This document shows, piece after piece, positions 12,184 through 18,887 of a stretch of 60,576 nucleotides of DNA. This stretch comes from a bacterium (GTDB lineage: Bacteria; Patescibacteriota; Microgenomatia; Daviesbacterales; UBA10151): NCBI GenBank assembly GCA_021786105.1, contig JAJYNW010000016.1, positions 1 to 60,576 of the forward strand. Direction: 5' to 3'. Below the pieces are notes generated by a model, which was not told the DNA's origin, searched no databases, and saw only the letters and a program-made list of their open reading frames with translations. A program made the translations under genes and the position numbers. The first letter of the stretch is position 1. Each line of letters starts with the position of its first letter.

Positions 12184-13075
12184 TTAAGTCTCCTTCTAAG
12201 ATTTTATCCAAATTATGCCAGGATTTGCCGATCCGGTGGTCAGTTACCCGGTTTTGGGGAAAATTGTAAGTCCTGATTTTTTCTGCCCTTTCACCGGTTC
12301 CCACCTGAAGGGCTCTTTGTTCCTCAATATTGCCAACCTTTTTTTGCTGTTCTATTTCCCAGATTTTGGAACGTAACAAGCTTAAGGCGTTTTCCCGGTT
12401 TTGCAGTTGCGATCTTTCAGTTTGACAGGTAACGACAATCCCGGTGGGAATATGTTTTAGCCTGACGGCTGTTGAGACTTTATTAACATTTTGCCCGCCG
12501 GCTCCGCCTGAGCGGAAAGCTTCAAATTCAATCTCAGCCGGATTGATGGTAACTTGAGCTGGAGTAACTTGTGGCAAAACGGCCACCGTGGCGGTAGAAG
12601 TGTGAATTCGGCCTCCGGATTCAGTAGCGGGTACTCTTTGTACCCGATGAACACCGGATTCAAATTTTAGCTTATTGTATGCATCTTTTCCGGCAATTTT
12701 GAGTACAATTTCTTTGATCTGTCCCAGCTTGCCTTCTGACCTGTCTAGCTCTTCTGTTTTCCAGCCTTGGTTTTGAGCAAATCTGGTGTACATCCGAAGC
12801 AAATCTCCGGCAAAAAGCCCGGCTTCATCTCCACCGGCAGCTGACCGGATTTCCAAAATTGCCACATTGGGATTGACCCCGGATTCCGGGTCGGTTTCAT
12901 CTTCTTGCGGTTGGGTATCCGAAGCAGAGGACTCTAAAACTTGCTTTTGGCTCTCCAGTTCTTTAATCTCTTCTGCTGCCAGTTCCGCCATTTCCGGATC
13001 CTCAAGTAACGGCCGAATATCCTTAATCCGCTGGCTCAATTCATCTATTTGTTGCTTTAAGTAATCGTTGTTCAT
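12152..13075 (-). CDS. prfA: Peptide chain release factor 1
   Basis: GGQ motif, [26 protein letters not shown]; start set at MNNDY (13075) because the longer frame runs through a repeat element. Confidence 0.95.
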
Positions 13076-13123
13076 AAGAAAATCTTGCGAGCTAATCGCT
13101 CTTAGGATTATTATACCTTTTAT

Positions 13124-13200
13124 GTCATTGCGAGGTCGAGACTTCGACCCGTGGCAATCTTCCATGGGCGTGGAAGATTCCTCACTACGTTCGGAATGAC
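13124..13200. repeat. GTCAT...ATGAC dimeric palindromic repeat (CGTC-REP/RPE-like), intergenic
   Basis: gtcattgcgaggtcgagacttcgacccgtggcaatct ... agattcctcactacgttcggaatgac. Confidence 0.85.
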
Positions 13201-13207
13201 AAAGTAG

Positions 13208-13534
13208 CTAACTTGGGATTTGTTTGCGAGCCTGCATGAGCAGGTCTTTGAGGGATGGCCGTTCTTTCTTTTTCTCTGCAACCTTAGATTTTCTAGCTTC
13301 CAAAATTCTCTTTCTCTCTTCCTGTTTAGCTTTGGAGTTTTCAGTTTTCTTAATAAATCTGTCTACTTGACCCAAAGTATCAACAAATTTTTGCTGGCCC
13401 GTAAAAAGCGGGTGACACTGGCTGCAAATTTCCACGCGGATGGCCGGCAGGGTTGACCCTGTCGTAAAAGTTGCGCCACAAGCGCAGGTTACTTTTGCTT
13501 CCGGATACCACTGAGGGTGTGTGTTTGCTTTCAT
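13208..13534 (-). CDS. rpmE: 50S ribosomal protein L31 with long basic C-terminal extension
   Basis: HPQWY, CACG, CSQCHPLFTG, DTLGQVDRF. Confidence 0.96.
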   Translation of the reverse strand: MKANTHPQWYPEAKVTCACGATFTTGSTLPAIRVEICSQCHPLFTGQQKFVDTLGQVDRFIKKTENSKAKQEERKRILEARKSKVAEKKKERPSLKDLLMQARKQIPS

Positions 13535-13589
13535 GATAGTGGGATTATATCAAAGATAGGTTCAAATCGCAAAGCCTCATTTTAAAAAT

Positions 13590-13734
13590 TAATCTAATTA
13601 CTAATTAATCTAATTTCTAAAGAATAACTAATGAGTAAATTACTATAGAGCGATTAGCTCTCAAGCTTTGCTTATTTAGACATTAGGACATTTAGTCATT
13701 AATTAGAAATTAGTAATTAAAAATTAGAAATTTT
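13590..13734. repeat. AT-rich imperfect inverted repeat built from CTAATT(T/A)-like heptamers
   Basis: ctaattactaatt...ctaatttctaa on the left; ttagaaattagtaatt...ttagaaatt on the right. Confidence 0.55.
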
Positions 13735-14673
13735 CTAAACTCTATGCGCTTTGTGGTGTCGGTGATGAGCCTCTTTAGCCAGAGTTCCCAGATAGGCGCC
13801 AACCGCAATTAAAGCTCCGCCGATTAAAAATTGGTGGGAGACTTTTTCCGCCAAAAGCAGGATAGCTAAGGCTGTAGCTATAAAAGGCTCAATATATTGA
13901 AAAAGGTCGGCAACCATAATGGAGGTTTTGGATAAACCCCATTCAAAAAGAAAATAGGCTGAGATTGAGGCCAGTAGGGCCATAAACACCAGGCCTGTGA
14001 TGCCTAATATGGTAACCTGGTTTATCCAGCCGGGATTTTGGATATATTCCAAAGCGGCCGGAATAAAAAAGGCCACCGTCCCCACTAAAAAAGCTATAGC
14101 GGTGATGATCAAAGAGGAATATTTGCCGACAAGATTTTTGGAAATGGTGGCACCTAATACCCAGGAAACTGAGGCCAAAACTATTAGGATATTGCCGGTC
14201 AGCATCTGCGGGGAGATGGTACCGGTGATAAGCTGGGGCAGGCCGATGATTACTAATGTCCCTACTAGCCCTAAAGCTATCCCAAAAAGATTAACCAAAT
14301 AAATCTTTTCTTTTAAAAACCACCAGCCTAAAAGTACAGATAACATAGGAATAAGTAAGGATAAAAATGAGGCATCAATAGCAGTAGTTCTTTTGATTCC
14401 TTCAAAGAAAAAGGTAATGTTTAAAACAATAATTAAAACTCCGACGGCAATCAGCTTGGGCAAATCTTGTTTTTCAATTTTGACCTTTTTGGTTTCTGCC
14501 AAAAAAAACGGGACCAGCAGAAGTGAGGCGATGGCAAAGCGAAGCAGGGCTAAACTCATGGGCGGAAACTCCTGTAGAGTAATTTTTGCGACAACATAGT
14601 TGGCACCCCAGAAAATGTGAGCCAGGATCAGGGCTATGTAAGGAATGGGCCTTTTAATGATTGGCGATGACAC
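13735..14673 (-). CDS. DMT/EamA family transporter
   Basis: 10 hydrophobic segments in two repeats; FWGANY, YIEPFIA. Confidence 0.92.
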   Translation of the reverse strand: MSSPIIKRPIPYIALILAHIFWGANYVVAKITLQEFPPMSLALLRFAIASLLLVPFFLAETKKVKIEKQDLPKLIAVGVLIIVLNITFFFEGIKRTTAIDASFLSLLIPMLSVLLGWWFLKEKIYLVNLFGIALGLVGTLVIIGLPQLITGTISPQMLTGNILIVLASVSWVLGATISKNLVGKYSSLIITAIAFLVGTVAFFIPAALEYIQNPGWINQVTILGITGLVFMALLASISAYFLFEWGLSKTSIMVADLFQYIEPFIATALAILLLAEKVSHQFLIGGALIAVGAYLGTLAKEAHHRHHKAHRV

Positions 14674-14677
14674 CTAT

Positions 14678-15934
14678 TTATAATGTCAGTTTTTGGATAG
14701 CTTCGTCAAGTGAAATGGTTTGCTGAGATTTATTTTTTAAGTCTTTCAAAGTAACTTTGTTTTCTTGGACTTCGTTTGGACCAATGATGACAACAAATGG
14801 AATACCTTTTTGGTTGGCGTATTTTAATTGCTTATCTAATTTTGACTGAGGATCCAGCCATAGTTCAGTGTTGATGTTATTGGAACGTAAACAAGAAGCA
14901 ACTTCTGCAGATTTCTGTTCCAGATCTTTGGAAAAAATAGTTACTAAAACTTGACTGGTGGTTAAATCAGCCGGAAAAAGACCTAATTGATCCATGACTT
15001 CTATCAGCCGGTCAAAGCCAAAGGCAAAACCAACAGCCGGAACAGTTTGTTTGGAAAATAAGCCAATTAAATTATCATACCTGCCTCCGCCGCCCACCGA
15101 GCCGGCAGTGTATCCTTCAATCTCAACTTCAAATATCAAGCCCGTGTAATAATCCAAGCCGCGGGCCAGTGTGGGAGAGAATTCATATTTTTCTTTTGAT
15201 ATGCCCAGTTCTTCTTCCAGAGCTTTGAATATGTCTTTCAAGTTTTGTGTTGGTTTACTGTCTTCTAAAGTACATAGAATTGATGTAGCCGAACTTTCAT
15301 CGCCTGAAGTAATTTTTTCTGTTAATTCATCAATGACTTCCTCATACCCAATTTTATTCAATTTATCAACTATGCGAATAATAGAGAAAAGATTGTAATC
15401 TTTGAAAATTGCATTATTGACCAAATCTGAAAAGATAGTTCTATCATTTATTATGGCTTTAAAGTTTTTAAAGCCTAAAGTTTCAAGGCTTTTAATAGTG
15501 CACGCAATTACTTCTGCATCAGACAGGGGAGAGTTTAAACCAACAGTATCGATATCACACTGCAGAAATTCCCTAAACCGGCCTCTTTGGGGGTTTTCCG
15601 CCCGCCAGACGGGTTGGATTTGGTATCTTTTGAAAGGAATAGGCAACTGATTTTGGTACTGGGCCACCACACGGGCTAAAGGCACGGTCTGGTCATACCT
15701 TAAAGCTACTCTGCGGCCCCCCTGATCAGTAAAACGGTACATTAATTTATCACCCTCATCCCCATATTTGCCCAGGAGTATTTCCTCATACTCCAAAGCT
15801 GGAGTCTCCAAAGGTTCAAATCCAAAGGATTCAAACACCTGTTTGAGCAAATTTTGCACATACTGTCTCTTCCCCGATTCTCGGGGCAAAAAATCCCTAA
15901 AACCTTTCAATGTCTGTGCCGTTATGTTACCCAT
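14678..15934 (-). CDS. hisS: Histidine--tRNA ligase
   Basis: KGFRDF, LRYDQTVPLAR, GRFREFLQCD, RGLDYYTG, GGGGRYD. Confidence 0.98.
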   Translation of the reverse strand: MGNITAQTLKGFRDFLPRESGKRQYVQNLLKQVFESFGFEPLETPALEYEEILLGKYGDEGDKLMYRFTDQGGRRVALRYDQTVPLARVVAQYQNQLPIPFKRYQIQPVWRAENPQRGRFREFLQCDIDTVGLNSPLSDAEVIACTIKSLETLGFKNFKAIINDRTIFSDLVNNAIFKDYNLFSIIRIVDKLNKIGYEEVIDELTEKITSGDESSATSILCTLEDSKPTQNLKDIFKALEEELGISKEKYEFSPTLARGLDYYTGLIFEVEIEGYTAGSVGGGGRYDNLIGLFSKQTVPAVGFAFGFDRLIEVMDQLGLFPADLTTSQVLVTIFSKDLEQKSAEVASCLRSNNINTELWLDPQSKLDKQLKYANQKGIPFVVIIGPNEVQENKVTLKDLKNKSQQTISLDEAIQKLTL

Positions 15935-16853
15935 ATATTTTCTCCATTAGATCTATGATAGCACGATCGTTTCTATTTGGAATTATTTGTTTAGGTGATA
16001 ATTCCAAAATATCCTTTGCTCCGGCTTCTTGTAACTCAGAAATTATCATTCTAAAATTACGACGAGGTATCAAGGAACTTATAGCCCACCACCCGCTTTC
16101 GTTTAATGGGGACATCGTTGGTGATTCTCCGCTGGGCAGTAAATCTGTTATTGTTTGTCTGGCAGATTCTGGTGCGTTCATAACAATATAGGTAAAGTTT
16201 CTAACTCTCAAAGCTGATTCGATACCCATTAAGAATTCTTTGACAAAGCGTTCGCTGCCTCTTTTTTCCCGAAGCTTTGGGCTGGCCACTAACATGGCTT
16301 CTGATTCAAGTAACACATCATAGGCTGTAATTCCGTTTGCCCTCATTGAATCACCGCTTGAGCTAATATCAACACAAGCTTGAGCTTCTCCTGATTTAAC
16401 ATATTTTTCTATTGAACCAGATCTTACTAACAAATCTACGTTTGTATTGCTTTTCGCAAAAAAATCACGGCTCAAATTTGGGTAAGAAGTGGCAACAGTT
16501 AAACCGTTTAAGTCTGAAGGTTTTTCGTAAGGTACGTCTTTTTTAACCCCCAGTTGTAGCCGGCACTTACCAAATCCTAAGGGCATTAATGGAATTACTG
16601 CTGACTCTGCTTCAGCTAAAGAGTTTTGCCCGACAATTCCAAAGTCAGCATAACCTCTTTCGACATCATTTGGGATATCTCCAATGCGGACCAGCTCAAT
16701 GCTTAAAGGAAAATCTTCTACCTCGCAAATATCGACCCTGCCTCCTATCTGAAAGCTAAAATTTGCCGCAGAAAGCAAGGCCGTTGAGTCTTGACCCATT
16801 CTGCCATCGGTTTTCTGTATTGCTATTTTTAATTTTGTTTCAAATTCACTCAT
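15927..16853 (-). CDS. hisG: ATP phosphoribosyltransferase, long form with regulatory C-terminal domain
   Basis: IAIQKTDGRM, DIPNDV...ADFGIVGQN, LGFGKCRL, VATSYP, PTMSPL. Confidence 0.92.
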   Translation of the reverse strand: MSEFETKLKIAIQKTDGRMGQDSTALLSAANFSFQIGGRVDICEVEDFPLSIELVRIGDIPNDVERGYADFGIVGQNSLAEAESAVIPLMPLGFGKCRLQLGVKKDVPYEKPSDLNGLTVATSYPNLSRDFFAKSNTNVDLLVRSGSIEKYVKSGEAQACVDISSSGDSMRANGITAYDVLLESEAMLVASPKLREKRGSERFVKEFLMGIESALRVRNFTYIVMNAPESARQTITDLLPSGESPTMSPLNESGWWAISSLIPRRNFRMIISELQEAGAKDILELSPKQIIPNRNDRAIIDLMEKIYG

Positions 16854-16884
16854 AATTTCTCACCTTCTTTCTTTTAAAATTCAC

Positions 16885-17199
16885 TCACTTGGTTTTTTCT
16901 GCGTGCCTCCTGGTTAATTCCTCCAAAACTTCTTCTAGAGTAATATTTGAGGCAACTAGACTTACTAGAGAGTGAAACCACAGATCAGCTGTTTCTCCGA
17001 TTACTGCGTCTCTTCCTTGACCAGTAAGGCTGAATCTGCTGACTGCTAGGGCAACTTCCACTCCTTCTTCTCCCACTTTTTGGGCAATACGAGATGGGCC
17101 TTTTCTAAAAAGGGAAGCTACATAAGATCCCTCCGGCATTTCTTCCTGCCGTTTCTTAACTATTCCGTATAAACCTTCAAGTGTTATTCTTTCTGTCAT
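16885..17199 (-). CDS. hisE: Phosphoribosyl-ATP pyrophosphohydrolase
   Basis: GSYVASLF, IAQKVGEEGVEV, ETADLWFH; ATG at 17199 follows GAAAGGAGGTGA. Confidence 0.93.
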   Translation of the reverse strand: MTERITLEGLYGIVKKRQEEMPEGSYVASLFRKGPSRIAQKVGEEGVEVALAVSRFSLTGQGRDAVIGETADLWFHSLVSLVASNITLEEVLEELTRRHAEKTK

Positions 17200-17227
17200 A
17201 TTTTTCACCTCCTTTCAAAATTTGCAC

Positions 17228-17289
17228 AAAAAAACCTTCCGTTCACTGCCCACTACCCAAAAATAGGGTAATGAACAAGGAACGGAAGG
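17228..17289 (-). terminator. Intrinsic terminator of the T-box leader
   Basis: 10-bp stem CCUUCCGUUC/GAACGGAAGG followed by U7. Confidence 0.88.
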
Positions 17290-17460
17290 CATTAAAAAAG
17301 GACCTCCCGCGGTCCCATCCTGTTTTCTGCAATCTATTGCTAAACTACAGCTCTTAGTGGCGACTCCGCTAGGCGACATCGTCTGTTTCATTTTACGGTT
17401 AAACTTCCGTAGAGTATTTGGCTCTCAGCTTTTGGATCGTGACTCCAATGCAAACGCTTT
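17228..17460 (-). promoter_or_regulatory. T-box riboswitch leader, probably tRNA-His specific
   Basis: Minus strand AGGA-UGGGACC-GCGGGAGGU pairs with GCCUUCCGU-UCCU (antiterminator); mutually exclusive terminator follows. Confidence 0.85.
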
Positions 17461-17501
17461 TTATCCCGATTTAATCGGGATAAATATTCAATTGTGTAAT
17501 T

Positions 17502-17529
17502 AGTATACCACAAAACCTTTCCTTGTCAA
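17502..17529 (-). promoter_or_regulatory. sigma70-type promoter of the his leader
   Basis: TTGACA-N16-TATACT with TGn extension. Confidence 0.75.
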
Positions 17530-17563
17530 ATTTACTATCGGTTACCGCAGGTGTCAATATAAA

Positions 17564-17580
17564 TACACCCCTAGGGTGCA
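17564..17580. repeat. CACCC-N-GGGTG short palindrome (REP-like)
   Basis: tacacccctagggtgca; related copies at 2178, 56388, 60093, 60118. Confidence 0.55.
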
Positions 17581-17682
17581 AGGTGCACTATATTGTGATA
17601 ATTGAATATAAATTGTTTGACAACTGCTTAGTTCAATGACGAATTAGGAAGTCTGTGGTATATTATTCTTGTAGACGTGGAC

Positions 17683-17784
17683 TATAATCGCTTGCGATTA
17701 CATCGCGACGCTTCTTGTAACGCGTTGCGTTATAATCGCTTGCGATTACATCGCGACGCTTCTTGTAACGCGTTGCGTTATAAT
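17683..17784. repeat. Perfect 2 x 48-bp tandem duplication upstream of manC
   Basis: tataatcgcttgcgattacatcgcgacgcttcttgtaacgcgttgcgt at 17683 and 17731, plus a third tataat at 17779. Confidence 0.92.
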
Positions 17785-17804
17785 TCTTCGTTATTACTCG
17801 AATT

Positions 17805-18887
17805 ATGAAAATTGTCATCTTTGCTGGCGGAGTTGGAACCAGGTTGTGGCCGCTATCACGTAAGAATACCCCTAAGCAATTTGAAAAGGTAATTGACGAT
17901 AAATCGATGCTGCAGATTTCCATTTCCAAAGTGTTTCCGGATTTTGACTGGAGTGACATTTATATTTCGACCAATAAGCAATATGAGCAAATACTTAAAA
18001 GTCAGTTCCCGGAAATCCCCGAGTCAAATCTGATTTTTGAGCCAGCCATGCGCGATGTAGGTCCGGCAGTGGGCTTGGTTATTGCTAACTTTATGAAGAA
18101 AAATCCGGATGAGCAAATAGCCATACTTTGGGGGGATCACCTGATTAAAAAAGACGATGAATTCAGAAAAGCTTTGAAAATTGCGGAGAAACTCAGCCAG
18201 GACGATCCGGAGAAGATTATTTTTGTGGGACAAAAACCCCGGTTTGCCAGTGTGAATTTGGGTTATATTGAATTTGGCAGCGAGGTTAAAAAGGAAGGGG
18301 AAACTCCGGTTTATGAATTTAAAGGTTTTAAATACCGGCCCGATGAGAATTTAGCCCGAAGTTTTTTAGCAGACGGTCAGCATGCTTGGAACTTAGGTTA
18401 TTTTGTGACCACCCCCAAATTTTTGTGGAAGTCTTATGAAAAGTTTGCCCCCGGTCTTTTTGAGAAATTAAGGTTAATTTCGGATGCAGTAGGGACGGCG
18501 GGCTACGAAAAATTTGTCGATGAAGTTTACCCGGCCATGGAAAAAATTTCTTTTGACAATGCCATTTTGGAAAAGCTGGATCCGGCAAACGGCTTGGTAT
18601 TATCAGTAGATATTGGCTGGAGCGATATTGGGGCTTGGGAGGCATTAAAAGAGGCTTTGGCCAAATCCGAAGATGAAAATGTGATTAAAGGTAATGTAGA
18701 GCTGTTGGATTCAACGGATAATTTGGTATTTAACTATAACGGCCAGCTAATTGTGGGGATTGATTTAAAAGGGATGCTCGTCATCAATACCGGAGACGTT
18801 TTGCTGGTTTGTCCAAAGACTTCAGTCCCCAAAATTAAAAAATACGTGGAGAGTTTAGCCGGTACCCCTAACGAGAAGTTGGCTTAG
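17805..18887 (+). CDS. manC: Mannose-1-phosphate guanylyltransferase-type nucleotidyltransferase
   Basis: AGGVGTRLWPLSRKNTPKQF, SFDNAILEK, WSDIGAW. Confidence 0.9.
   Translation: MKIVIFAGGVGTRLWPLSRKNTPKQFEKVIDDKSMLQISISKVFPDFDWSDIYISTNKQYEQILKSQFPEIPESNLIFEPAMRDVGPAVGLVIANFMKKNPDEQIAILWGDHLIKKDDEFRKALKIAEKLSQDDPEKIIFVGQKPRFASVNLGYIEFGSEVKKEGETPVYEFKGFKYRPDENLARSFLADGQHAWNLGYFVTTPKFLWKSYEKFAPGLFEKLRLISDAVGTAGYEKFVDEVYPAMEKISFDNAILEKLDPANGLVLSVDIGWSDIGAWEALKEALAKSEDENVIKGNVELLDSTDNLVFNYNGQLIVGIDLKGMLVINTGDVLLVCPKTSVPKIKKYVESLAGTPNEKLA

Follow-up and report, generated by a model that had tools for sequence, protein, structure and literature searches.

The window, as we call the whole stretch of 60,576 nucleotides analysed here, belongs to a Candidatus Daviesbacteria (CPR) genome of 1.04 Mb (92% complete, 26 contigs) and carries on its minus strand, in this order, a His-type T-box leader followed by hisE, hisG, hisS and eamA. 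The features of the locus are:

17502..17529, minus strand: sigma-70-type promoter, TTGACA-16 nt-TATACT with an extended -10 TG (11/12 matches)
17227..17544, minus strand: T-box leader, probably specific for tRNA-His (Rfam RF00230 and reading of the sequence)
16885..17199, minus strand: hisE, phosphoribosyl-ATP pyrophosphohydrolase, 104 aa from the ATG at 17199 (PF01503, TIGR03188)
15927..16853, minus strand: hisG, long-form ATP phosphoribosyltransferase of clade B1a, 308 aa (PF01634 and PF08029, TIGR00070)
14678..15934, minus strand: hisS, histidyl-tRNA synthetase, 418 aa (TIGR00442, PF03129)
13735..14673, minus strand: eamA-family (DMT) transporter gene (PF00892, 3.6e-44)

The hisE, hisG and hisS genes lie, on the minus strand, at the positions given in a preliminary description of this DNA, which had missed both the continuation of the operon into eamA and the T-box leader ahead of it. 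A gap of 31 nt separates hisE from hisG, the reading frames of hisG and hisS share 8 nt, and eamA follows hisS after 4 nt. A scan of the minus strand returned no terminator-like sites from the leader terminator to 13940, which is within the 3' part of eamA. The tight spacing of the four genes supports a single transcript, and we infer from this layout that hisE, hisG, hisS and eamA are co-transcribed. The strong Shine-Dalgarno (SD) motifs of hisE (AGGAGGT) and hisG (AGGTGA) do set them apart from their neighbours, as had been described: an SD match of at least 6 nt occurs in only 3 of the 59 window ORFs of at least 100 aa, and these two genes account for two of the three.

The promoter is the best promoter-like site within 13000-18000. 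In the leader, a CAC is found at 17496-17494 (minus strand) and the T-box sequence AGGAUGGGACCGCG, with its UGGN bulge, at 17321-17308, while the terminator (17288-17227; stem 17288-17279/17243-17234, then T7) lies 3' of the T-box sequence and upstream of the aaRS operon. The RF00230 model matches the leader over the full model length at 28.7 bits (E=2e-4), which is below the Rfam gathering score of 93, and in 13 related loci the identical T-box 14-mer stands ahead of the operon's first gene. The UGGG of the leader presumably fits the C73 discriminator of tRNA-His, and the leader is probably specific for that tRNA. In Firmicutes, T-box(His) leaders control his operons, hisS and histidine transporters, and auxotrophs keep T-box control of their uptake genes (PMC9413887). 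The window leader resembles these systems in that it appears to be of the uncharged-tRNA-sensing type and stands ahead of genes for a tRNA ligase and for what is probably a transporter, but it falls short of their model in score, as given above, and, unlike the operons of the Firmicutes auxotrophs, the operon behind it still holds the first two biosynthetic enzymes.

HisG proved to be the intact long form that it had been called, with catalytic and regulatory motifs kept. Its catalytic domain (PF01634, 3.5e-38, 131.5 bits against a cut-off of 25.5; TIGR00070, 142.3 bits against 75.75) is accompanied by a C-terminal histidine-binding domain (PF08029, 7.9e-19, 68 bits; TIGR03455, 69.8 bits; both exceeding their cut-offs), and the presence of PF01634 together with PF08029 identifies the long form. 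Both the window HisG and the sequences P0002-P0009 retain the catalytic motifs GR, DIP, CR and SYP, together with the Glu of GSVE and the P-loop D-I-S-S-S-G-D-S-M, and the window protein keeps the invariant C-domain residues N226, P245/T246, P249/L250, W255 and G278/A279. Compared by eye with PROSITE PS01316, the HisG signature including the PRPP-binding P-loop, the protein reads E-KYVKS-G-E-A-QA-C-V-D-I-SS-S-G-D-S-M, with two deviations from the strict pattern (C for I/V and S for T), while it keeps the Asp, the S/T-G and also the Glu of GS[VI]E.

An AF2 model of HisG (pLDDT 94.4, pTM 0.88) predicts a three-domain fold that agrees with solved HisG_L structures, with Foldseek TMq/TMt values of 0.82/0.85 for 4yb6, 0.82/0.87 for 2vd3 and 0.82/0.91 for 1nh8. 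The same architecture, a PF01634 core plus PF08029, is found in the HisG_L of E. coli (1h3d), C. jejuni (4yb5-7), M. tuberculosis (1nh7/1nh8) and V. cholerae (7dah), and full-length alignment to such structures, including 7dah, 1h3d and 4yb5, gave E of about 1e-34 to 1e-36 at an identity of about 30%. Unlike these known enzymes, the window HisG belongs to a Daviesbacteria-only clade, has an extra, clade-specific C-terminal helix (residues ~297-307, IPNRNDRAIIDLMEKIYG), deviates from the signature at the two positions named, is encoded by a gene that overlaps hisS, and lacks a downstream pathway.

HisE (PF01503, 5.8e-19, 68.7 bits against a cut-off of 21.3; TIGR03188, 87.6 bits against 42.7) resembles the HisE/PRA-PH, MazG-like all-alpha NTP pyrophosphohydrolases (2a7w, 1yvw, 1yxb; HisIE 6j2l), and when aligned to 2a7w and 6j2l it keeps the acidic metal-binding motifs EExxE...ExxD (EEGVE, ETADLWFH). 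It differs from the known enzymes in being encoded by a stand-alone gene upstream of hisG and not at an operon end beside hisI, in having no HisI partner in the genome, and in a 5-residue insertion (RFSLTGQGR region), which is common to the orthologue in the closest relative, L036.

HisS scores 405.5 bits against TIGR00442 (cut-off 286.75) and carries the anticodon-binding domain PF03129 (3e-19), and tblastn returned no second HisRS copy in the genome. An identification of this gene as HisZ was rejected, since TIGR00443 gave 194.3 bits, below its cut-off of 271.65, and the anticodon-binding domain is present. The arrangement is akin to the HisZ-HisG_S hetero-octameric ATP-PRT (L. lactis 1z7m, P. 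arcticus 5m8h, A. baumannii 8oy0), where hisG is likewise paired with a HisRS-family gene, but the window HisRS is genuine, full-length and the only copy, and HisG is the long, self-regulating form. In some relatives HisRS is only ~300 aa, the architecture of HisZ; a HisZ identity was rejected here too, as this protein is the sole HisRS in those genomes and is also found without HisG (G007, G023).

No further his gene (hisI/A/F/H/B/C/D) was seen in the window, in agreement with the preliminary description, and their presence elsewhere in the genome, which that description had named as the finding that would overturn its interpretation, was rejected as well. Profile searches for HisA/F (PF00977), HisD (PF00815), HisI (PF01502) and HisB (PF00475) gave 0 matches in the genome, the same searches being positive in 14/14 control genomes, and genome tblastn with the operon proteins of the same-genus relative G001 returned none of HisD, HisA, HisF and HisI, and weak generic matches only for the HisB, HisC and HisH queries. 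From this gene content, lacking HisI, HisA/F, HisB and HisD, we conclude that the cell does not use hisE-hisG for histidine synthesis. For the supply of PRPP the genome has two Prs genes together with a PurF-like gene, and no SLOG or NYN companion genes were found in it.

The HisG phylogeny that had been called for was built and placed the window HisG in subclade B1a of a separate Daviesbacteria clade, B1, which is set apart, with branch support 84/100, from HisG of the canonical kind and from that of the complete operons. Within B1, the support for each of the subclades B1a, B1b and B1c is 99%. Throughout B1, hisG lies just upstream of hisS, either adjacent to it or with one small gene between; the 8-nt hisG/hisS overlap of the window recurs in L033, L034, L036 and L037, and L036 has the identical order T-box-hisE-hisG-hisS. 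The order hisS-eamA-rpmE-prfA is kept in nearly every Daviesbacteria locus examined with flanks available. Most genomes with a B1 HisG have no hisE, so HisE is not an obligatory partner. Relatives were also searched, as had been proposed, and G057, G049, G036, G005 and G027 (95-99% complete, hisG beside hisS) are all without HisD, and without HisA where tested.

Relative to L036, dN/dS (NG86) is 0.10 for hisG and 0.28 for hisE (dS 0.84). Other B1 pairs gave 0.11-0.21, and for one pair, with a ratio of 0.21, the dS of 0.32 is not saturated, whereas several comparisons have a saturated dS. On these ratios, hisE and hisG are both under purifying selection, and values of 0.1-0.2 led us to reject hisG as a mere upstream ORF for the translational coupling of hisS. 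In subclade B1b the DIP, CR and P-loop Asp positions are changed, yet dN/dS is 0.18-0.21, and these altered catalytic positions under continued selection hint that selection within this clade may be acting on something other than ATP-PRT catalysis. Between G049 and G036, the dS of hisG is 0.32 against more than 1.8 for the flanking genes, a sign of horizontal exchange.

Two relatives of the same genus, G001 and G015, have a complete hisGDCBHAFIE operon at the same site, and decayed his remnants occur in the family (G058 has a hisI interrupted by a TAG stop, G047 has hisF/hisI fragments), so that pathway erosion is really ongoing. The HisG of these complete operons is only 34% identical to that of the window, and a simple internal deletion of a complete operon was rejected on this identity, on the different clade and on the hisE-hisG order, which does not fit. 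A recent foreign acquisition was likewise rejected: the GC content of the locus shows no anomaly, and the close homologues all appear to come from Daviesbacteria genomes or short metagenome contigs with the same hisS/eamA context. A further search for related loci in genome contigs returned only an unrelated Bacteroidota HisG.

In a sample of 401 CPR genomes HisG was present in 22, and 12 of the 21 other HisG-bearing genomes are without HisD. Among these 12, hisI adjoins hisG in six and hisE in two (hisG-hisE-hisS in G270, hisG-hisE-prs in G184), and a SLOG gene is additionally present in one. SLOG cluster4 genes (LOG-like superfamily, PF18306) stand beside hisG in the T-box operons of G005, G036 and L038 and beside hisG-hisI in G455, and unannotated ORFs occur in two further T-box operons, those of G012 and G039. 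Judged by gene content, sets restricted to the early his steps (G, E, I, sometimes with SLOG/LOG-like or prs) recur in unrelated CPR families. We found no literature on orphan HisG in CPR, and a paper on Woesearchaeota merely lists hisG as a gained gene.

The reading that we favour, with a confidence somewhat short of even, is a maintained, histidine-gated module that would convert ATP and PRPP to PR-AMP, and it is built on the gene content, the missing pathway, the conservation, the purifying selection and the recurrence described above. Promoter, T-box(His) leader, hisE, hisG, hisS and eamA would form one histidine-controlled operon, in which uncharged tRNA-His would make the leader permit read-through transcription and thereby yield more HisRS, EamA transporter, long-form ATP phosphoribosyltransferase and PR-ATP pyrophosphohydrolase. 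HisG and HisE, presumably active, would condense ATP with PRPP to PR-AMP, the step being made irreversible, and because HisG keeps its histidine-binding C-terminal domain, histidine would gate the reaction twice, by transcription and by allostery. The pair would be a selectively maintained member of the Daviesbacteria-specific B1 clade and not a rotting leftover, and would exemplify a broader tendency among CPR to retain only the first two or three his steps. Purifying selection and the recurrence in other CPR lineages indicate that hisE-hisG probably serves a purpose other than histidine synthesis; we know of no use of PR-AMP outside histidine synthesis. As to what the role might be, a draw on the ATP/PRPP pool triggered by histidine starvation, or PR-AMP as a metabolite or signal, is speculative and rather unlikely. 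Possible, though doubtful, is the broader proposal that orphan HisG with its variable partners HisE, HisI, SLOG/LOG-like and Prs forms the core of a CPR-wide, histidine-starvation-induced nucleotide conversion, which under T-box or other histidine control would turn ATP and PRPP into PR-AMP/ProFAR as a starvation signal, a growth brake or a PRA/AICAR shunt, in a role independent of histidine synthesis.

Counted against the module are the lack of any known other use of PR-AMP and of HisI or SLOG to process it in this genome, as well as the absence of hisE from most B1-HisG genomes, the 92% completeness, the B1b changes, the PROSITE deviations, the full operons at the same site, the decayed remnants in the family and the saturated dS. 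The interpretation given in the preliminary description stands in part: its factual core, an orphan HisG and HisE with hisS and the rest absent, holds, and among its explanations the evidence favours the repurposed His-regulated module. A stranded fragment is disfavoured by dN/dS of 0.10 and 0.28, the distinct HisG clade and the recurrence in unrelated CPR families, and an acquisition from outside, in the sense of a recent one, is unsupported, the close homologues being apparently of the same lineage and the GC content unremarkable.

That B1 HisG might be non-catalytic, a histidine-sensing partner of HisRS or EamA comparable to HisZ-HisG complexes or to regulators of the PII type, with hisE as a passenger, is in our estimation unlikely. 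It would agree with the position of B1 hisG just ahead of hisS and the overlap in the window and four further loci, with the replaced catalytic-motif residues of B1b at a dN/dS still of 0.18-0.21, with the C-terminal regulatory domain and clade-specific helix that all B1 members keep, with the known binding of the HisRS-like HisZ to HisG in the complexes cited above, and with the lack of hisE in most B1 genomes; however, the window subclade B1a retains every catalytic motif, hisE is itself under purifying selection with its position kept in L036, and hisI, SLOG and prs accompany orphan hisG elsewhere, nucleotide-processing neighbours that suggest chemistry and not sensing alone. Selection also bears on slow erosion, in which an ancestral T-box-hisG...hisI-hisE-hisS operon would have lost its middle, the useless end genes persisting since deletions must spare the leader and hisS. 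With dN/dS staying at 0.10-0.28 across a long divergence and unbroken ORFs in upwards of 15 lineages, we hold this to be distinctly unlikely, the more so as the hisE-hisG order, kept in L036, is not derivable from hisG...hisE by simple internal deletion, the window HisG is of another clade than the complete-operon HisG at 34% identity, hisG shows signs of horizontal exchange (G049/G036), and G/E/I sets recur in other CPR families in other gene orders. Erosion would nonetheless account for the complete operons of G001 and G015 at exactly the window site, for family leftovers directly upstream of hisS that are always G, I or E, the operon-end genes (hisG-hisI in G027, hisI only in G012, the interrupted hisI in G058), and for hisF/hisI fragments elsewhere in G047 and G001.

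In Salmonella hisA mutants, which have a truncated pathway, ProFAR from HisG-E-I supports PurF-independent PRA formation (PMC3485032), and reduced symbionts are reported to retain fragmented pathways (PMC4306246). These cases are alike in that early histidine steps without the rest can matter metabolically, and unlike the laboratory mutants and insect endosymbionts the window truncation is natural, one step shorter (no HisI) and recurrent phylum-wide. An unrecognised route might accordingly break PR-AMP/ProFAR down to PRA, R5P or AICAR, which would then enter purine or thiamine metabolism, or supply histidine non-canonically through unannotated or lineage-variable downstream enzymes. The SLOG cluster4 genes beside hisG or hisG-hisI and the unannotated ORFs of the G012 and G039 operons would fit such a route. 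We regard such a route as very unlikely, given that the window genome has neither HisI nor SLOG, that the operon holds no ORF of undefined product, that the PurF-like gene makes a PRA bypass seem unnecessary, and that ProFAR gave no PRA in vitro (PMC3485032). A pathway that is complete after all, its missing genes lying in the unassembled ~8% or being supplied by a host or partner cell, is highly improbable: a compact his operon could fit one gap of this 92% complete assembly in 26 contigs, and ARAGORN found no tRNA-His gene among the 37 tRNAs of the genome, so some essential items are absent from the assembly or escape detection, but the full operon of the two same-genus relatives occupies this very locus, which is contiguous here. 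In addition, several orphan-hisG relatives that are 96-100% complete are without HisD, and without HisA/F where tested (G057, G049), and G281 of the CPR sample, a one-contig genome tested for HisD only, is without HisD. To our knowledge, phosphorylated intermediates are normally not exchanged between cells, which counts against supply by a partner.

CPR bacteria are regarded as auxotrophic for amino acids, and their partial pathways are usually dismissed as noise or as products of decay. In the present genome, the first two enzymes of histidine synthesis are intact, under purifying selection and joined to a putative tRNA-His sensor and a tRNA ligase in an auxotroph. If the enzymes are active, PR-AMP would be made specifically under histidine shortage, which would point to a starvation response or metabolic shunt that has so far gone unrecognised in a very large and poorly understood part of bacterial diversity, and two small soluble enzymes and one riboswitch offer a directly testable handle. 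For metabolic reconstruction, the locus advises caution, in that hisG alone should not score pathway presence. A minor point of annotation concerns the start of hisE: the ORF list places it at GTG 17208, which falls within the strong SD AGGAGGTG, and the ATG at 17199 lies 7 nt past this motif.

In the window, the ORF listing contains four head-to-tail, tightly spaced minus-strand ORFs, and these are preceded by a promoter and a leader with T-box features:

17529-17502, minus strand: strong promoter, TTGACA-16-TATACT, upstream of hisE
17321-17308, minus strand: T-box sequence AGGAUGGGACCGCG, inside the leader
17288-17279/17243-17234, minus strand: terminator stem followed by T7, inside the leader
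17199-16885, minus strand: hisE, ATG start at 17199
16853-15927, minus strand: hisG, 308 aa
15934-14678, minus strand: hisS, 418 aa, its start overlapping the hisG stop by 8 nt
14673-13735, minus strand: EamA/DMT transporter gene, 4 nt past hisS

All three his products exceeded the cut-offs of their families, including PF01503 (68.7 bits, cut-off 21.3) and TIGR03188 (87.6 bits, cut-off 42.7) for HisE, and the catalytic PF01634 (E 3.5e-38), the C-terminal regulatory PF08029 (E 7.9e-19) and TIGR00070 (142 bits, cut-off 75.75) for HisG. HisS matched TIGR00442 (405 bits, cut-off 286.75), did not reach the cut-off of the HisZ family TIGR00443 (194 bits, cut-off 271.65) and carries an anticodon-binding domain; tblastn found no second copy in the genome (G000). 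Its closest named relatives are 'Candidatus Daviesbacteria bacterium', taxonomic placement here following the names carried by homologues. The ATG start proposed for hisE in the preliminary description was kept, since the alternative GTG at 17208 in the ORF listing falls within the Shine-Dalgarno (SD) sequence AGGAGGTG. The unusually strong SD motifs described for hisE and hisG were likewise borne out, both genes being among the 3 of 59 window ORFs (at least 100 aa) with a match of at least 6 nt. Such motifs are rare in the window, and 38 of the 59 ORFs have no match of at least 4 nt.

The leader aligned with the Rfam T-box model over its full length (E=2e-4), with a score of 28.7 bits that is far under the gathering score of 93, and the CAC at 17496-17494 occupies the model's specifier position. 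The UGGG bulge would fit a C73 discriminator, which is typical of bacterial tRNA-His. Despite this apparently tRNA-His-sensing leader, no tRNA-His was among the 37 tRNAs found by ARAGORN in the whole genome; it may have fallen into a gap of the assembly or be unusual in structure. Among Firmicutes, examples of T-box control are known for both his operons and histidine transporters (PMC9413887).

Over its entire length the window's HisG can be aligned with solved long-form enzymes. It retains the motifs GR, DIP, CR, SYP and GS[VI]E as well as the P-loop, with two conservative departures from the strict signature, and the invariant residues of its histidine-binding domain are retained. Its AF2 model (pLDDT 94.4) superimposes on 4yb6, 2vd3 and 1nh8 with TM 0.82-0.87, and the acidic motifs of HisE are also retained. 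The nearest relative, L036, is a contig of 1.6 kb that begins within the T-box sequence and continues with hisE-hisG-hisS in the same order as in the window, its HisG being 72% identical. Between these two loci, Nei-Gojobori estimates gave dN/dS 0.10 for hisG (dS 1.9, near saturation) and 0.28 for hisE (dS 0.84). Other hisG pairs within B1, the Daviesbacteria clade that includes the window's HisG, gave dN/dS 0.11-0.21, with dS saturated in many of the compared pairs. The genomes G049 and G036 form an unsaturated pair (dN/dS 0.21, dS 0.32) with flanking genes at dS >1.8, and therefore point to a recent exchange of hisG between lineages; the same discordance was found in further pairs. Purifying selection rules out both a neutral leftover and an ORF retained solely for the translational coupling of hisS.

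A HisG-family gene was present in 21 of 100 relatives (genomes G, fetched loci L and homologous proteins P below), in four groups:

(a) complete operons with hisG, hisD, hisA/F, hisI and hisE together: G001, G015, G017 (partly assembled), G034, G041, G056, G095
(b) clade B1: the window, G049, G036, a second copy in G056, G027, G005 and metagenomic P0002-P0011
(c) short or aberrant HisG adjoining hisS: G057, G008, G039, G004, L059
(d) very divergent HisG-like protein adjoining lysS/serS: G037, G029, G033, G011, G024, G006, G088 (seven genomes; loci L015-L017, L025-L028)

In the same genus, G001 and G015 carry a complete T-box-hisGDCBHAFIE between manC and hisS-eamA-rpmE-prfA, which is the window's site, and their HisG is 34% identical to the window's, against 69-84% (G001) and 53-85% (G015) for flanking proteins. 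B1 HisG is the long form plus a C-terminal extension of about 20 residues, missing from canonical HisG in the alignment and confidently predicted as a helix in the AF2 model, and its gene lies just upstream of hisS in every case. In the HisG tree, B1a (window and P0002-P0009), B1b and B1c each received 99% support and a branch with 84/100 support sets them apart from all else, while complete-operon HisG clusters with a clade holding P0020 (NCBI name Thermomicrobiales; support 100/97) and group (d) forms a separate supported clade. The group (d) proteins have 255-330 aa (PF01634 E 1e-32 to 3e-9), with an unannotated protein of about 450 aa on the side opposite lysS/serS. G056 (L029, G056:C3:136000-152000) combines a B1 hisG at its hisS locus with a complete operon under its own T-box on another contig. 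The HisG of that operon and its G001 counterpart are nearly identical, though G001 belongs to another genus, and serine recombinase-like and GIY-YIG-like ORFs (judged by eye) lie within a few kb, which together suggest that the complete operon spreads horizontally.

The preliminary description had seen only the first two pathway steps in the window, and the genome-wide searches agree: none of the profiles His_biosynth (HisA/F), Histidinol_dh, PRA-CH and IGPD matched anything in G000 (14 of 14 control genomes positive each time), and tblastn with proteins of the same-genus complete operon found no HisD, HisA, HisF or HisI and only weak, generic matches for HisB, HisC and HisH. Histidine synthesis thus cannot be the module's purpose in this cell. 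The best-supported reading is that hisE and hisG would constitute a maintained, doubly histidine-gated module converting ATP and PRPP to PR-AMP, PRPP being on hand because the genome encodes two PRPP synthetases and a PurF-like amidotransferase. Uncharged tRNA-His would lead to co-expression of the module, HisRS and the probable transporter. As to its role, a starvation-linked drain or signal is our preferred guess, a weakly supported one. That incomplete assembly hides the remaining genes remains a rival for a genome of 1.04 Mb in 26 contigs (completeness 92%, contamination 1.2%), as does an unknown downstream route fed by the early steps, with which the dependence of PRA formation on ProFAR in Salmonella may be compared (PMC3485032).

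Slow erosion of the pathway also remains a rival, and erosion in this family is real: one hisI immediately upstream of hisS has an internal TAG stop (G058, L045:3861-4145), G012 has only hisI-hisS, and short hisF and hisI fragments lie away from hisS in G047 (L044:3357-3757) and G001 (G001:C67:23697-24079). Only G, I or E survive immediately upstream of hisS, and since the ancestral operon had these genes at its ends, the geometry of deletions accounts for which genes could survive. Early-steps-only sets, however, recur in unrelated CPR families in differing gene orders, a pattern for which chance decay is a poor explanation. Among 401 evenly sampled Patescibacteria genomes, HisG occurred in 22; the other 21 HisG-bearing genomes, sorted by HisD presence, comprised 9 with and 12 without it, and 11 of the 12 HisD-less loci were inspected, plus the twelfth (G088) as L028. 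hisI adjoins hisG in six of these genomes (G184, G281, closed in one contig, G323, G358, G455, G473), hisG-hisE precedes a Pfam-confirmed PRPP synthetase gene, prs, in G184 (L049:591-2704), and G270, of another family, has hisG-hisE-hisS. No publication on orphan HisG in CPR emerged from a literature search. A regulatory partnership of HisG with HisRS or EamA remains a further rival to the PR-AMP module: hisE is absent from most B1 genomes, B1b has replacements at DIP, CR and the P-loop Asp, and selection across B1 as a whole may act on a property other than catalysis.

The companions of B1 hisG within the T-box operon differ by lineage. hisE lies upstream in the window and L036 and downstream in L035, and hisI accompanies it in G027. 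SLOG cluster4 genes (PF18306, LOG-like superfamily) occur in G005, G036 and L038, in the two genomes downstream of a T-box motif, and directly adjoin orphan hisG at L021:5586-6140, L022:6941-7648, L038:144-722 and L055:4783-5373; in G455, from another CPR family, the SLOG gene after hisG-hisI is 63% identical to that of G005. An inserted NYN gene is found in G049, G036 and L035, between hisG and hisS (L018:5548-6075, L022:5424-5945, L035:1359-1955). In G049 and G036 the N-terminus of its product nearly equals the start of the downstream HisRS (MIKAPPT.K), suggesting that the insertion duplicated the hisS start.

G005 and G008, which have no HisA, HisD or HisI, carry a lone HisH-HisF-like pair distant from hisG (L042:2918-4377, L043:2836-4312), 44-49% identical to operon copies; this pair may function as a glycan amidotransferase and not in the histidine pathway. 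In G133 and G381, which like G184 belong to other CPR families, a lone HisG-like gene is preceded by a small ORF (L047:6174-6506 and L054:2596-2874, respectively) that resembles TrpR/YerC-type regulators when judged solely by eye. Two T-box(His) operons contain an ORF without a Pfam match, one of 246 aa immediately ahead of hisI-hisS in G012 (L039:4008-4748) and one of 257 aa immediately ahead of hisS in G039 (L020:5161-5934). Additionally, many Daviesbacteria (G057, G008, G049, G036, G007, G023) encode a HisRS of about 300-338 aa lacking the anticodon-binding domain (for example L013:6912-7832, L018:4570-5478, L040:4423-5322), which is the sole HisRS-family gene found per genome, including genomes that are 99-100% complete, and occurs with or without an adjoining hisG.
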